Both the position numbers and the translations under genes were made by a program. A stretch of 43,411 bases of DNA from a virus (taxonomy: Duplodnaviria > Heunggongvirae > Uroviricota > Caudoviricetes): IMG/VR virus record IMGVR_UViG_2541047907_000004, positions 1 through 43,411 of that record; one strand, 5' to 3'. Under the pieces are notes generated by a model that was not told the origin of the DNA, ran no database searches, and saw nothing but the letters and a program-made list of their open reading frames with translations. Of this stretch, positions 25,107 to 31,674 are shown in pieces (the stretch's first letter is position 1; each line of letters opens with the position of its first letter).

Positions 25107-25704
25107 GCTCTACCCCTTCATTGAGGGGATTTGCTCTATTTAATTAGGAATAAGGTCGATTACTGATAGAACAAATCCAGGCTACTGTGTTTAGTAATCA
25201 GATTTGTTCGTGACCGATATGCACGGGCAAAACGGCATGAGGTTGTTAGCGCAACCTCCTGCCACCCACTTTCACGAAGGTCATGTGTAGAAAGCCGCAG
25301 CATAACTATCACTGATGAATTCAGGATAGCCAGTGGCTACGGCCCAGTTTGGGTTGTGGCGGTCGGTGCTGAACTCCGACTTAATGACGATAGGCGTGTA
25401 CCGACGCCTCGTTTTACTTCCTCCGCTTTCACGGCTTCACCCTAGACCAGCTTTACGAAATCCTCGTAAACCTAACCGCGGCAGATATGACCGGCACGGT
25501 GTGCCATATCACGGACCGGCGGGTGTCTCGTTCACCTGATTAACGCATCAGCCTGCGTATTCACCACAACGATAAGAGCACTGCGCGGCACCTTTCACCA
25601 ATTCCGCGAGGTCTGCGGGTTCAATGCCCTTACCTGTTGTGCAAACAAAAAAGCCACCGTTGCAACTTAAGAGTCACTAACGGCAGCTTACCCTCTAATT
25701 ATGG
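25107..25704 (-). promoter_or_regulatory. Late regulatory region between Q and the lysis genes (expected pR', qut and late leader)
   Basis: 598 bp without a convincing ORF, between the Q-like gene and the holin; the site of the Q-dependent late promoter in lambdoid phages. Confidence 0.35.
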
Positions 25705-26223
25705 CTAAATGGCTAATTGCATGTCAAGGTTTTTAACAGCAACATGCTTAACTTTCTCAACACGTTTACGCATTTTGAAAGCATTTTGCATTGGTTGGTA
25801 CAAAACAAATAATGACGCTTTCAGGATGTCGTCAATTTCGTTTCTACAGGTTGCCAGTGAAGGTTTTCTCCATCCCTCGCCACCACGTCCACACATCTTG
25901 CGTGGCTTTGCAGTCGCGTGATAGTAGGATGCAATTGCTCGCTTAGATGAACCATGAGCGTAGTAGCTGAGGAGGATGCCAAAGGCTTTTTTGTCAATGT
26001 ACATGACGGAATCGACGACCTGAGAAATCAACATTCCATCATCATCATTGCACATTGGCCTTGTCATAACTCTTCCCGGCTCTACGCTCTCCATGAACTT
26101 CGCTATTACGCTGCTCATGCGCTTTTCCAGACGACCTGAATAAACCCATGCGCCCCACAGTTCAAGCCAGCCATTCAGCCACTCGAGCTGCTCTTTGGTG
26201 AGGTTTAGTTCTCTTATGCCCAC
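25705..26223 (-). CDS. Late gene antiterminator Q (Q82/QuuD-type)
   Basis: 172 aa; block [11 protein letters not shown]...[18 protein letters not shown]...LLSYYAHG resembles remembered DLP12 QuuD; GTG start overlapping the ninI end; located just upstream of the late region. Confidence 0.6.
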
Positions 26224-26744
26224 GCGCCTTCTCCCTGTACCTGAATCAATGTGAGGTTTCCGCAGAACACTGCGCCGGTATCGATATACATCTGGTTGGA
26301 AAACTTGAGTGGTTTCACTGCTGGCGTATGACCAAAGATGAACGTGTCCGCGCCTTTGATTTCTTTCACGATCCCGTCTTGTGAGTTGCTGATTCGTTCG
26401 CGGTTCCAGATTACCTGCTGATGATCAACTGGCTTTCCAAACTCGTATTCGTCATAAGGATAATCGGCGTGGCAGATGACATATTTTTTATCTTTGCTCA
26501 CCAGTTCGATGATTAACGGAAGTTCATCTGCTTTATGGGCAAGAGCTTTAGCCAGAATTTCTTTGTCGTAATCGAGATTAAAGAACCAGCCACCGCCATT
26601 AAGCATCCAGTGATTGACGTTTCCGCGCTCTGATAAGCCATCAATCATCATTTGCTCATGGTTTCCACGTACAGCTCTGAACCAGGGGAATGAACCGCCC
26701 CGGGAATCCTGGAGACTAAACTTCCTGAGAAAGAGGTAAACAGG

Positions 26745-27071
26745 ATGACTAAAAATACTCGTTTTTCCCCCGAAGTCCGTCAACGGGCAGTCCGTATGGT
26801 TCTGGAAAGTCAGAGCGAATATGACTCACAATGGGCGACAATTTGTTCCATTGCTCCAAAGATTGGCTGTACGCCGGAGACTCTGCGTGTCTGGGTTCGC
26901 CAGCATGAGCGGGATACCGGGGGCGGTGATGGAGGGCTCACCACCGCTGAACGTCAGCGTCTGAAAGAGCTGGAACGTGAAAATCGTGAACTGCGCCGCA
27001 GTAACGATATCCTTCGCCAGGCTTCCGCTTATTTTGCGAAGGCGGAGTTCGACCGCCTCTGGAAAAAATGA
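26745..27071 (+). CDS. IS3-family transposase OrfA (HTH DNA-binding)
   Basis: 108 aa [22 protein letters not shown]... with a leucine-zipper-like C-terminus. Confidence 0.9.
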
Positions 27072-27958
27072 TGCCACTGCTGGATAAGCTGCGTGAGCAG
27101 TACGGGGTCGGACCGCTATGCAGCGAACTGCATATTGCCCCGTCAACGTATTACCACTGTCAGCAACAGCGACATCATCCGGATAAACGCAGTGCCCGTG
27201 CGCAGCGCGATGACTGGCTGAAGAAAGAGATACAGCGCGTATACGATGAAAATCACAAGGTATACGGTGTGCGTAAAGTCTGGCGTCAGTTGTTACGGGA
27301 AGGTATCAGAGTGGCCAGATGCACTGTGGCACGTCTCATGGCGGTTATGGGACTTGCCGGTGTTCTCCGGGGTAAAAAGGTCCGTACGACCATCAGCCGG
27401 AAAGCCGTTGCCGCAGGCGACCGCGTAAACCGTCAGTTCGTGGCAGAACGACCTGACCAGCTGTGGGTGGCTGATTTTACTTACGTCAGCACATGGCGGG
27501 GCTTCGTCTATGTGGCGTTCATCATTGATGTGTTTGCCGGATACATCGTGGGGTGGCGGGTCTCATCGTCCATGGAAACGACATTCGTGCTGGATGCACT
27601 GGAGCAGGCGTTATGGGCCCGTCGACCGTCCGGCACGGTCCATCACAGTGATAAAGGTTCTCAGTATGTATCGCTGGCCTACACACAGCGGCTTAAGGAA
27701 GCCGGATTACTGGCATCAACAGGAAGTACAGGCGACTCGTATGACAACGCGATGGCGGAGAGCATCAATGGTCTTTACAAAGCGGAGGTAATACACCGTA
27801 AGAGCTGGAAAAACCGTGCAGAAGTGGAACTGGCCACACTCACGTGGGTGGACTGGTATAACAATCGACGATTGCTGGAAAGGCTGGGCCATACTCCTCC
27901 GGCAGAAGCAGAAAAAGCTTATTATGCTTCCATCGGAAACGATGATCTGGCAGCCTGA
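27068..27958 (+). CDS. IS3-family transposase OrfB (DDE catalytic domain)
   Basis: 296 aa; overlaps OrfA in the -1 frame across an A6 run (27063-27068), consistent with programmed frameshifting to an OrfAB fusion. Confidence 0.9.
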
Positions 27959-28175
27959 GTTCACAGATAAAACACTCTCCAGGAAACCCGGGGCGGTTCA
28001 GAATGTGATTAATTCCAGGCATTCAACGTTCTCTGCACCACGATCAACCAAATCGCCCACCGAGATAAGCAGGTCTTTTTCGTTGTCGAATCCAATCGTA
28101 TCCAGTTTGTTCATCAGGTTCGTGTAGCATCCGTGCAGATCGGCAACTACCCAAATATTTCGGTATTTGCTGCCA

Positions 28176-28382
28176 TCAATTCTTTCGTAATAGCGCATCT
28201 CTTTCACTCCATCCGCGATGAACCATGAGAACGTCGTTGACGATGGCGTGCATTTTCCCGTCTTTATCATCAACGTATTTTCTGACCGTACCGCGACTAC
28301 ATTTCAGTCTGCGTGCTACTTCTGTCTGGTTTCCGTATGCCTCAACGAGCATGTCTGGAATGGTTTTTACTGAGAACGTCAT
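28176..28382 (-). CDS. ninH: NinH
   Basis: 68 aa [37 protein letters not shown]..., matching remembered lambda NinH. Confidence 0.85.
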
Positions 28383-28981
28383 GCGGCCTCACTTCTGCTA
28401 TTTCGCAGGTCTTTGAGTTTCTGTTGGTACTCTGCCTTGATCGCCTTGCACTCTTCGATAGTCCAGCGATGGCGGTTATGGTTTGATTCGATTTCGTCTA
28501 CTGCTTCCTGCCCGATTCGGTTAATCAGTTCGACGCGATACGGAACGAGATTTCCGCTTTTATGCTGGTTGCACACCACGCATTGCTTGTGAATATTGCG
28601 TTCATCAAATCGGAGTTGAGGTGCCGCAGAAGTTGTCCGGTAATGTCCGGCATCCCACTGAGCAGACGTGAGCGTTCCGCACGAGATACATGGTAAGTCG
28701 CGGTCTCTTTCTCTGATGAAGGCGTTTACGGCTTGTTGGGCTTGTTTAATCCAGTAACTGCGGGGCTTTAAGGCGAGTTTTCGAATCTTAAGTTTATCTT
28801 TCTGTTTCTGCTCCTCTCGTCGCCGTTTCTTCTCTGCTGCTTTTTCCGCTTTTTCGCGTTCTTTGCTTCGTCGTTCGAGTGCTATCTTTGTTCCACAAAT
28901 CTCATTACACCAATATTGATTTTGATATTTTGGTATAAACCATTCATTGCAACATTTACATTTCCTTCGATAGATTCGCAT
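28379..28981 (-). CDS. ninG: NinG (Rap-like recombination protein), starting at a downstream ATG with its own RBS
   Basis: From [15 protein letters not shown]... the C-terminal ~165 aa ([15 protein letters not shown]... onward) match remembered lambda NinG; AAAGGAG RBS 5 nt upstream of the ATG. Confidence 0.8.
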
Positions 28982-29522
28982 AAGTGCTCCTTTCGTTGCC
29001 GGAAAAATCACCGTAATACTTATCTCGGGCTTCTTCAGCAACTAGTACCGCTAACTCCAGATCATCAAAGCATCCGAAGTGTTTACTCTTGCCATGGAAA
29101 CCTAGCCTAACATTCCATTTTTTCTGTCGTTTGTGCCAAGTAACTCCTCTGCAACCTGATTTGCTGTTCTTTCGGATCCTTATATTTCTTGAATTTTCTA
29201 TTGGCAGGCATTCTCTTAAATTTTCTGGCCTATTGTCGGTCCTAATTCCATTAACGTGGTCAATTTGACCAGCAGGCCAGCGATTATGAGTTATGTAAAA
29301 AACTAAGATGTGAGTTTTATATCTACGCCCATCTATCATGATCATTGAATAACCGTTGGAATCAAAAGTTCCAGCAACACTATTTAATGCTATCCTTCCC
29401 TGAGTGGGAACTTTCCATCTAAATACCCCGGTAGATTTATCGAAACTTAGTAACTCAAATATCCTTTTAACAGTTAAATCTTCTCTTTTACGGTTACATC
29501 GTCTTCGCGCTGGTTTAGCCAT
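28956..29522 (-). CDS. HNH homing-type endonuclease with C-terminal AP2-like DNA-binding domain
   Basis: 188 aa; HNH_3-like core ([16 protein letters not shown]...NRPENL) and AP2-like block ([31 protein letters not shown]); its first 9 codons MAKPARRRC equal the lambda NinG N-terminus. Confidence 0.75.
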
Positions 29523-29685
29523 CGTATTCTTCCTCGTACATTGAGCTATTCGGATCGCTCATCAGTTCTGCACAGCAGTGCTCACACACGTGAACTTCCA
29601 GCACATGCAGCTTCTGACCGCAATTAGCGCACGTTAAAGCCCGCTCGACGCTTTCTTGTTCGTAACTTCGATTTGGGTCAATCAC
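29515..29685 (-). CDS. ninF: NinF
   Basis: GTG start preceded by GAGGAA; [48 protein letters not shown] matches remembered lambda NinF. Confidence 0.75.
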
Positions 29686-29864
29686 CTTGTATTCCTCGCA
29701 CGATGTCTTAGCCACCGGATATCCCACAGGTGAGCCGTGTAGTTGAAGGTTTTTACGTCAGATTCTTTTGGGATTGGCTTGGGTTTATTTCTGGTGCGTT
29801 TCGTTGGAAGGTATTTGCAGTTTTCGCAGATTATGTCGGTGATACTTCGTCGCTGTCTCGCCAC
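29682..29864 (-). CDS. ninE: NinE
   Basis: 60 aa [35 protein letters not shown]... matching remembered lambda NinE; GTG start 4 nt downstream of AAGGAGG. Confidence 0.8.
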
Positions 29865-30004
29865 ACGTCCTCCTTTTCCTGCGGTAGTGGTAACACCCCT
29901 GTTGGTGTTCTTTCACACCGGAGACACCATCGATTCCAGTAAGGTTGATTTGGTCGGAAGCGGTTATCTTCTTTGCATTCACCGCACCGATAACATCGCA
30001 TCAT
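29831..30004 (-). CDS. ninD: NinD-like small zinc-finger protein (57 aa)
   Basis: Found by manual translation: [31 protein letters not shown]...; ATG overlaps the ninC stop (ATGA); the size equals lambda NinD. Confidence 0.5.
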
Positions 30005-30873
30005 GCAGCTTCCCTCCCGAAGTCGAAATCAAGCTGCCCTCCAAATATTTCGCATGACTCAGAACAAGAGCCGGTATCGAATCTTTTAGCTCGTACCATG
30101 TCCTGATACAGGGCTTGATAATCATTTTCTGAATACATTTTCGCGATACCGTCCAGCGACATTCTTCCTCGGTACATAATCTCCTTTGGCGTTTCCCGAT
30201 GTCCTTCACGCACATGGGATCCCGTGATGACCTCATTAAAAACACGCTGCAATCCCTCCTCATCTTTGCAGGCAAGTCCGATTTTTTGCGTTGATTTTTT
30301 AATGCAGAATATGCAGTTACCGAGATGTTCCGGTATTTGCAAATCGAATGGTTGTTGCTTCCACCATGCGAGGATATCTTCCTTCTCAAAGTCTGACAGT
30401 TCAGCAAGATATCTGATTCCAGGCTTTGGCTTTAGCCGCTTCGGTTCATCAGCTCTGATGCCAATCCACGTGGTGTAATTCCCTCGCCCGAAATGGTCAT
30501 CACAGTATTTGGTGAAGGGAACGAGTTTTAATCTGTCAGTGCAGAACGCGCCGCCGACGTATGGAGTGCCATATTTCTTTACCATATCGATAAATGGCTT
30601 CAGAACAGGCATTCGCGTCTGAATATCCTTTGGTTCCCATACCGTATAACCATTTGGCTGTCCAAGCTCCGGGTTGATATCAACCTGCAATACGGTGAGC
30701 GGTATATCCCAGAACTTCACAACTTCCCTGACAAACCGATATGTCATTGGATGTTCACAACCTGTATCCATGAAAACGTAATGCACGTCTTTACCTGCCC
30801 GTCGCTTTTGCTCCATTAGCCAGAGCAAATATGCTGACGTCCTGCCACCGGAGAAACTAACGACATTTATCAT
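30001..30873 (-). CDS. ninC: NinC (PAPS reductase-like PP-loop protein)
   Basis: From [25 protein letters not shown]...; PP-loop SGGRTS; matches remembered lambda NinC; ATGA overlap with ninB. Confidence 0.8.
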
Positions 30874-31310
30874 GCAGCCCTGTCTCCCCATCTCGCTTTC
30901 CACTCCAGAGCCAGTCTCGCTTCGTCTGACCACTTAACGCCACGCTCTGTACCGAATGCCTGTATAAGCTCTAATAGCTCCGCAAATTCGCCTACACGCA
31001 TCCTGCTGGTTGACTGGCCTATTACCACAAAGCCATTCCCAGCAAGGTTAGGAACAACATCCTGCTGCTTTAATGCTGCGGTAAACACACACTTCCAGCT
31101 TTCTGCATCCAGCCAGCGACCATGCCATTCAACCTGACGAGAGACGTCACCAAGGCAAGCCCAAAGCTTTCGATTTTGGTCTAAGCTGCGGTTGCGCTCC
31201 TGAATGGTTACTACGATTGGTTTTGTTGGGTCTGGAAGGATTTGCTGTACCGCGTGAATAGCGTTTTGCTGATGTGCTGGGGATCGAATTTCAAAGGTTA
31301 GTTTTTTCAT
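30870..31310 (-). CDS. ninB: NinB (recombination protein)
   Basis: 146 aa MKKLTFEIRSPAHQQNAIHAVQQILPDPTKPIVVTIQERNRSLDQNRKLWACLGDVSRQVEWHGRW..., matching remembered lambda NinB. Confidence 0.85.
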   Translation of the reverse strand: MKKLTFEIRSPAHQQNAIHAVQQILPDPTKPIVVTIQERNRSLDQNRKLWACLGDVSRQVEWHGRWLDAESWKCVFTAALKQQDVVPNLAGNGFVVIGQSTSRMRVGEFAELLELIQAFGTERGVKWSDEARLALEWKARWGDRAA

Positions 31311-31383
31311 GACTTCCCTCTCTCCCAAATAAAAAGGCCTGCGATTACCAGCAGGCCTGTTATTAGCTCAGTGATGTAGATGG

Positions 31384-31674
31384 TCATTGCCTTACCTCCA
31401 TAAGCGCCCTATTAATAAACGCCGTCATTGGATTTGCACATCCCCACCCCGTACCATCTGGATTTCTTTTAATTGGCTCCTTCTTCACTTTGCGTTTTGC
31501 ATAAATAACCGTCTTCCACTTACGCTCAACAACACTCAAATGTCCTTGTTTCACCATATGCCTTGCTGCTTGAGCGATTCTGTTATTTGGTATTCCGGTG
31601 ATCAGTGCTAATTCATGTGGGGAGAATTGTTCATGAGTTTTCAGATATTCCAGGATGATTTCTTTTCCAGTCAC
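31384..31674 (-). CDS. Ren-like protein
   Basis: 96 aa, GTG start overlapping the loader gene stop; N-terminus TGKEIILEYLKTHEQFSPHELALITG resembles remembered lambda Ren; sits where ren sits in lambda. Confidence 0.5.
   Translation of the reverse strand: MTGKEIILEYLKTHEQFSPHELALITGIPNNRIAQAARHMVKQGHLSVVERKWKTVIYAKRKVKKEPIKRNPDGTGWGCANPMTAFINRALMEVRQ

Follow-up and report, generated by a model that had tools for sequence, protein, structure and literature searches.

The window analysed here is the whole 43,411-nt stretch of the IMG/VR virus record IMGVR_UViG_2541047907_000004 (Caudoviricetes). In its nin region, a gene for an HNH-AP2 endonuclease occupies the 5' end of ninG. As listed in Table 1, where all coordinates are window positions, the HNH open reading frame (ORF), ninG, ninF and ninH all lie on the minus strand. 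The HNH ORF begins at the start codon that belongs to ninG in lambda, and a complete ninG begins anew inside the 3' end of the HNH ORF.

Table 1. Features of the ninF-ninH region of the window, with the basis on which each was assigned.
Feature	Position	Strand	Basis
HNH-AP2 endonuclease ORF	28956-29522	-	188 aa; phrog_99 'HNH endonuclease', 2e-71
Retained lambda-type ninG start	29494-29522	-	ATG + 26 nt = MAKPARRRC; 29/29 nt identical to lambda
Foreign AT-rich cassette, 596 nt	28898-29493	-	Three-way alignment with lambda and AU6Stx1; GC contrast; nucleotide diversity contrast
HNH_3 catalytic domain, residues 68-107	29202-29321	-	Pfam HNH_3, 5e-11
AP2-like DNA-binding domain, residues 123-171	29010-29156	-	Foldseek AP2 matches; Pfam AP2 below cut-off
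AAAGGAG Shine-Dalgarno site for the restarted ninG	28987-28993	-	Inside the 3' tail of the HNH ORF; from sequence
Alternative ninG 5' module, 28 codons	28898-28981	-	47.8% nt identity to lambda over the first 95 alignment columns
Complete ninG (rap), 200 aa	28379-28981	-	Pfam NinG, 285 bits, profile positions 5-192 of 193
ninF	29515-29685	-	Pfam NinF, 47 bits; lambda alignment and annotation; start set by lambda analogy
ninH, downstream neighbour	28176-28382	-	Pfam Phage_NinH, 149 bits; alignment with lambda

The HNH ORF lacks its own start codon and uses the original ninG start instead. Its ATG (29520-29522) overlaps the ninF stop codon (29515-29517) in the 8-nt string ATGGCTAA, and the same overlap is made in lambda by the second ATG of ninG. 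The first 29 nt of the ORF, which consist of the codons for MAKPARRRC and 2 further nt, are identical to lambda ninG read from this second ATG. An initial annotation of the window had placed the ORF at the canonical ninG start, overlapping the ninF stop, and had identified its first nine residues with the lambda NinG N-terminus; both statements hold when the second lambda ATG is taken as the reference. In-frame start codons are found in the HNH ORF only at codons 1, 60, 62 and 188; therefore, the ninG ATG is the sole start that gives the full-length enzyme, including its conserved N-terminal strands.

The restarted ninG has its ATG 5 nt after the AAAGGAG sequence and is read in the +1 frame, where it overlaps the HNH ORF by 26 nt (28956-28981). 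The restart at an internal ATG with its own ribosome-binding site, as first described, thus agrees with the coordinates. The last 14 codons of the HNH ORF run across this new ribosome-binding site and the restarted ATG.

The boundaries of the foreign segment were determined using a three-way alignment of the window with lambda and the Shiga toxin 1 (Stx1) phage AU6Stx1. The window follows lambda across ninF and as far as nucleotide 29 of ninG; the identity to lambda ends after ATGGCTAAACCAGCGCGAAGACGATGTAA and resumes at TGTGGAAC (28897). Between these two points, a segment of 596 nt (29493-28898), hereafter the cassette, stands in place of 64 nt of lambda ninG, which gives a net gain of 532 nt. 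Downstream of the cassette, a nucleotide identity to lambda of approximately 98% holds for the remainder of ninG and continues into ninH and ninI. The cassette contains the HNH body, the Shine-Dalgarno site and the 28-codon alternative N-terminus of NinG. Its GC content is 37.6%, that of the alternative N-terminal module alone is 28.9%, and the corresponding values are 48.8% for the ninG body, 49.8% for ninF and approximately 50% for four natural ninG 5' modules; judged by base content, the cassette is foreign. Of the in-frame insertion into the 5' end of ninG that had been proposed, the foreign segment and its reading frame are borne out, but the event is a replacement of 64 nt and not a pure insertion.

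Neither a sigma-70-like promoter nor a minus-strand terminator was found in the cassette. Since the cassette has no promoter of its own, the HNH gene and ninG are presumably both expressed from the delayed-early nin transcript. No meaningful repeats flank the cassette except for an imperfect duplication of the ninG start. The lambda allele was considered as a deletion derivative of the cassette allele and rejected, since recombination between the two TGTAA copies gives a sequence that differs from that of lambda. Across 28300-29800, no Rfam family was matched at E ≤ 1. The missing intron RNA match, the stop codon of the HNH ORF and the restart of ninG in another frame together indicate that the HNH gene is free-standing, and an intron- or intein-encoded endonuclease was rejected on the same observations.

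Beyond its first nine codons the ORF continues as an HNH endonuclease, as had been read from the sequence at first. The Pfam HNH_3 profile (PF13392) matches residues 68-107 at 42.4 bits against a cut-off of 24.8, and residues D88, H89, N101 and N110 are invariant in an alignment with 14 homologues. The catalytic residues, whose absence would have spoken against the initial annotation, are thus present. D88 and H89 are encoded at 29256-29261, N101 lies within the HNH_3 span, and the codon of N110 (29193-29195) lies just downstream of it. The same alignment gives a conserved core of residues 16-174; residues 1-15, consisting of the nine NinG codons and NRKRED, and residues 175-188 have no counterpart in the relatives and are modelled with low confidence.

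The AlphaFold model of the HNH protein has a mean predicted local distance difference test (pLDDT) value of 88. For the N-terminal half, the top structural match in the PDB is the nicking endonuclease I-HmuI (1U3E), which is found with a probability of 1.00 but is modest in strength (E 7e-3, template modelling (TM) score 0.37-0.40 over 106 columns, 18% identity). This half may have the beta-beta-alpha-metal fold known from solved HNH homing endonucleases. For the C-terminal half, Foldseek gives the AP2 domains of AtERF1 (1GCC; TM score 0.68 normalised to the target and root-mean-square deviation 1.3 Å over 51 columns), WRI1 (7WQ5) and TEM1 (7ET5), all with a probability of 1.00. In the model, the C-terminal domain is accordingly predicted to have the AP2/ERF fold of a three-stranded sheet and a helix. 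The AP2 assignment is made by fold: the Pfam AP2 profile (PF00847) reaches 22.2 bits, under its cut-off of 33.3, although several homologues carry a precomputed PF00847 match, and a search of the PDB by sequence yielded no more than a weak AP2 match for the HNH protein (WRI1, E 0.19). In NCBIfam, neither the HNH protein nor NinG has a model.

The HNH core has homologues of 150-200 aa, which are stand-alone proteins. The HNH protein itself forms one cluster at 99% identity with 464 members, from E. coli and Salmonella enterica, and its nearest phage relatives, which are at most 44% identical, are annotated homing endonucleases of virulent Jersey-like Salmonella phages and of T5-like phages. A search of 5.8 billion proteins gave nothing between 99% and 44% identity, the GTDB species representatives gave one distant planctomycete match only, and metagenome contigs gave only the two cassette contexts that were already known (described below). 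An ancestral donor of the cassette was not found by these protein, GTDB and metagenome searches.

The NinG N-terminus supplied by the cassette was compared with those of natural NinG proteins (lambda, JLK-2012, SE1 and S.Kent), which differ mainly in their first 30 residues or so. The first 95 nt or so of ninG are 50-77% identical between lambda and the other natural alleles (50-87% over all natural pairs), while identity between natural alleles is 85-96% in the remainder of the gene and 92-96% in the adjoining 200 nt. All modules converge on the conserved body within approximately 20 nt of the right boundary of the cassette (compared in lambda (L002) and loci L143, L144 and L145), which indicates that the cassette sits at a pre-existing mosaic junction. 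The cassette module keeps C8, C11, W14, F15, P17, N21, Q22, W24 and C25, which are invariant against the four natural alleles; at position 29 in the numbering of the window NinG, three of the five sequences have Cys, and JLK-2012 and SE1 have His. Since all invariant residues are kept, the module is a functional-looking NinG N-terminus as far as its sequence can tell. Its AT-rich codons suggest long residence in a genome of lower GC content rather than point-by-point recoding. The best natural NinG N-terminus among phage records is at most 61% identical to it, and with the 40-aa alternative N-terminus as query, the only entries retrieved were partial NinG sequences of E. coli.

The alternative NinG module is strictly linked to the HNH gene, and none was seen without it. 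It is present in all 53 readable IMG/VR cassette loci and in none of 77 empty lambda-type loci, and the number of complete E. coli genomes matched is the same for the HNH region as for the module (538). Among 40 evenly sampled matches, the HNH gene is annotated under the match in all but one, and this exception is split by an insertion sequence (IS). The related but different Cys-rich N-terminus that had been noticed on the restarted NinG is therefore present as described, and is found to be a part of the foreign cassette.

An IS1203/IS629-type element lies in the alternative ninG 5' module, where it splits the HNH gene from ninG, in NZ_AP026092.1 (locus L003, 2539-3870) and in one IMG/VR locus; it belongs to the same IS family as the element that disrupts ninI in the window.

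The occupancy of the site was determined in 5,426 complete E. coli genomes, a sample rich in Shiga-toxin-producing E. coli (STEC) strains. The cassette was found at 569 places in 538 genomes and the empty lambda-type site at 872 places in 834 genomes; approximately 39% of lambda-type sites are filled. The cassette occurs across many serotypes and in two genera. The alignment of ninF-ninG regions with and without the cassette, which had been suggested as the means to define the insertion site, does define it: up to the very edges of the cassette, the same haplotypes occur on either side in filled and in empty loci. A C/A single-nucleotide polymorphism (SNP) at 28889, 9 nt beyond the last cassette base (28898), occurs in all four combinations with the cassette state. 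The cassette is thus polymorphic for presence and absence at one defined site in homologous genomes.

Two upstream contexts of the cassette were found. In one, the cassette follows ninF, which occurs in several haplotypes including that of lambda itself; in the other, it follows unrelated AT-rich DNA in which no more than about 15 nt of the 3' end of ninF are left. The context without ninF is the commoner one (38 of 59 scored loci, for example that of AU6Stx1), and upstream of the HNH gene it contains an (ATTTCT)n tandem repeat as well as a gene of 1.8 kb that is encoded on the opposite strand. In AU6Stx1-type contexts, RefSeq calls the HNH ORF from an upstream start, which gives 201 aa instead of 188.

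The cassette is carried on several haplotypes of the ninG body and in both E. coli and Salmonella enterica. Its nucleotide diversity is 0.0039, compared to 0.034 for the adjoining ninG body, a value approximately 9-fold lower (53 loci, computed without locus L010, whose ninG is disrupted). The contrast in diversity, the two contexts and the two species indicate horizontal spread independent of the flanks, and show the cassette to be discrete and young, and to have moved onto many ninG backgrounds older than itself. Of the 53 loci, 52 have an intact HNH ORF and approximately 49-50 an intact ninG. The string CGAAAGGAGCACTTATG, which contains the ribosome-binding site, is identical in 52 of the 53; at the remaining locus (L059), a 1-nt deletion shifts the extraction window and the motif is the same. 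Four decayed copies were observed (L028, L029, L150 and L059), with two nonsense mutations at codon 36 of ninG, one internal deletion in ninG and the 1-nt deletion in the HNH gene.

In RefSeq, the trio of 'protein NinF', 'HNH endonuclease' and 'recombination protein NinG' is annotated in hundreds of genomes, and the same is found in Stx1 phage records. Literature searches found no paper describing this HNH element of ninG. What is already established is the existence of HNH-AP2 homing endonucleases, of free-standing endonucleases with divergent flanking gene sequence, and of nuclease genes at recombination boundaries (PMC10448857, PMC2988022, PMC2790892). HNH-AP2 proteins have been described as a homing endonuclease family (Magnani et al. 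2004, as cited in PMC10448857), and 'IPA-HNH' homing endonuclease genes are known from ICP1-like and other phages (Barth et al. 2023, PMC10448857). The present protein resembles them in its N-terminal HNH_3-type nuclease, its C-terminal AP2 fold and its occurrence as a small stand-alone phage protein at a boundary of genetic exchange. It differs in that its nearest relative is at 44% identity, in that it is found in temperate lambdoid prophages, and in that it lacks a start of its own and travels with a replacement 5' module of the host gene. With the HNH nicking enzyme I-HmuI of Bacillus phage SPO1, it shares the His/Asn catalytic constellation; I-HmuI is encoded in a group I intron and has other DNA-binding modules, whereas here there is no intron match and the C-terminus is AP2-like.

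The free-standing endonucleases SegF, SegG and MobE of phage T4 are known for 'intronless homing' (PMC2988022; for mobE, PMC2790892). The T4 Seg and Mob genes spread by break repair, in which the adjacent donor sequence is co-converted, which leaves the carrier allele with a different target sequence. A divergent piece of the adjacent gene is part of the present cassette as well. The T4 genes, in contrast, have starts of their own, intergenic sites, virulent hosts and demonstrated activity, while the present element is known from sequence. In the P22-like phage epsilon34, a resident gene has an HNH homing endonuclease fused in frame to its N-terminus (PMC2629481). That phage is also lambdoid, and its HNH ORF is also in frame with the first codons of the resident gene; however, the locus (early left operon) and the HNH lineage are different, and no restored downstream copy of the target is described there. 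Genes can also be split by homing endonuclease genes, as nrdA of Aeromonas phage Aeh1 is split by mobE, where the split gene yields two polypeptides. In the ShiLan insertion of actinophage methylase genes, the inserted segment is translated in frame as a loop, and the HNH gene occupies a different frame (PMC11855218). In both of these cases, as here, an HNH gene lies within a coding region without an intron or intein and the function of the host gene is apparently kept. In contrast to them, ninG is neither split nor read through but acquires an entire new 5' end, ribosome-binding site included.

The element is probably a free-standing HNH-AP2 homing endonuclease cassette that lies in the 5' end of lambda-type ninG and spreads among lambdoid prophages. 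In the proposed mechanism, the HNH gene and ninG would be expressed only in lytic growth, as members of the delayed-early nin operon driven by PR. When a phage with the cassette meets a lambdoid genome with an empty ninG, the enzyme would nick or cut in or near the ninG 5' module, and recombinational repair off the filled allele would copy the cassette into it. The ninG 5' module of the cassette would be too divergent for cutting, so that carriers would be immune; the 47.8% identity of the carrier module to that of lambda is compatible with this prediction. The supplied start and the new ribosome-binding site would keep NinG function and expression. We infer the cleavage, the target site and active homing, and we hold the present-day activity of the endonuclease with somewhat less assurance than the identity of the cassette. 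In the picture drawn at first, a mobile endonuclease had inserted while the expression of its target was preserved. The shared flanks, the foreign composition, the low diversity and the complete ninG speak for this picture; that mobility is driven by the endonuclease itself should still be read as conditional.

The main rival to the homing cassette is that of a passive mosaic module, which would have originated in one illegitimate event and then spread by Red/RecA exchange and clonal expansion, for example of O157:H7, with an HNH protein that is inactive or irrelevant to the spread. We regard this as possible, although clearly less likely. Several observations weigh against active homing, and most of them are what a passive module would leave. 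A single lineage with a single insertion site and fixed boundaries is known, and the site is a ninG 5' end that was already a mosaic junction with several natural modules. No co-conversion tract or gradient is visible, as the haplotypes that flank the cassette are as diverse in filled as in empty loci. The 22 SNPs of the HNH gene consist of 10 synonymous and 12 non-synonymous changes, which indicates weak purifying selection, and a few copies are changed at invariant residues (N101S in 1 of 53 loci, and P83T) or frameshifted. ninG is dispensable in lambda, as the nin5 deletion shows, while essential genes are frequent targets of homing endonucleases. Much the same pattern would be expected from one ancient illegitimate event with ordinary recombination after it.

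At least one genome, that of O157:H7 PV15-279 (NZ_AP018488.1), has a filled and an empty site together in two prophages, which is a further point for a passive module and indicates that conversion does not take place in lysogens. This coexistence would be accounted for if the nin operon is repressed in the lysogenic state, and it is compatible with an endonuclease that is silent in lysogens. The two prophages would form a natural donor and recipient pair for induction.

What a passive module accounts for less readily is that the ORF is intact in all but one of the loci and that its catalytic motif is conserved. An occupancy of more than a third of the sites with near-zero internal diversity is also fast for a neutral 0.6-kb passenger in a dispensable gene.

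As a further alternative, the HNH-AP2 protein may be a domesticated nuclease that benefits the phage, for example by excluding lambdoid competitors or by acting on host or defence DNA, with its position in ninG being incidental. Homing endonucleases are known to give marker exclusion and a competitive advantage (PMC10448857), the cassette is highly prevalent among Shiga toxin (Stx) prophages, and the early lytic expression of the operon, as deduced from the absence of an own promoter, would suit such a role. The capture of the ninG start and the supplied 5' module, on the other hand, have the look of a selfish insertion that spares its target gene, and the exclusion of phages with an empty site is mechanistically the same as homing. 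We consider domestication improbable.

A bifunctional protein could be suspected from the nine NinG residues that open the ORF and from the overlap of the two ORFs; it would be a NinG whose long N-terminal HNH domain is native, or else the product of a programmed frameshift that joins HNH to NinG within the 26-nt overlap. Such a protein is very hard to maintain: the gene fusion that had been named at the outset as the outcome contrary to an insertion is contradicted by just nine shared residues and no long NinG domain, the HNH ORF closes at a stop codon, ninG is in the +1 frame with a strong Shine-Dalgarno site and an ATG of its own, no slippery heptamer is present in ATGCGAATCTATCGAAGGAAATGTAA, the homologues of the HNH core are stand-alone, and empty-site alleles encode a normal NinG.

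The hypervariable 5' module of ninG may itself be the footprint of repeated replacement events. A more specific proposal, which we put forward as speculative and rather doubtful, is that the HNH-AP2 protein is an active nickase or cutter that targets the zinc-finger-coding 5' module of lambda-type ninG, and that the hypervariability of this module reflects repeated endonuclease invasion, co-conversion and escape.

Among the neighbouring genes, ninF has a mechanical ORF that begins at a GTG codon at 29727, and ninH overlaps the ninG stop codon in the same way as in lambda. Farther downstream, ninI (Ser/Thr phosphatase) is interrupted by an IS3-family element of 1,310 bp (26691-28000). The element has terminal inverted repeats of 25 nt (TGAACCGCCCCGGG...), and its orfA/orfB lie on the plus strand at 26745-27958. 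The remnants of ninI lie on the minus strand, the N-terminal one at approximately 28001-28273 and the C-terminal one from 26214 to approximately 26690. No complete E. coli genome in the collection covers at least 80% of 25500-31500, the part of the window that spans the IS in ninI and the cassette. Unrelated HNH genes were also observed in a prophage of E. coli AVS0578 (L147), one next to a pseudogene fragment immediately upstream of ninB and another between Q and the holin gene. From such HNH genes at other early-right and late positions of lambdoid phages, the nin region may be a general landing zone for HNH endonuclease genes.

For annotation, the finding means that NinG in prophages with the cassette starts at MRIYRRKC, and that the 'HNH endonuclease' upstream of it starts at the ancestral ninG ATG. 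The architecture is a compact case of a selfish insertion that spares its host gene, in which the element takes the start of its target and supplies a new ribosome-binding site and a new N-terminus. If the enzyme is active, a homing endonuclease would be at work inside the best-understood temperate phage family, to which Shiga-toxin prophages of O157:H7, O26, O111 and O145 strains belong, and its natural target, the empty site, would be present in lambda itself, so that homing, marker exclusion and lambdoid mosaicism would become testable by standard lambda crosses. If the hypervariability of the ninG 5' module is indeed due to repeated invasion, homing endonucleases would be one engine that creates and maintains a mosaic junction in the lambda model system.

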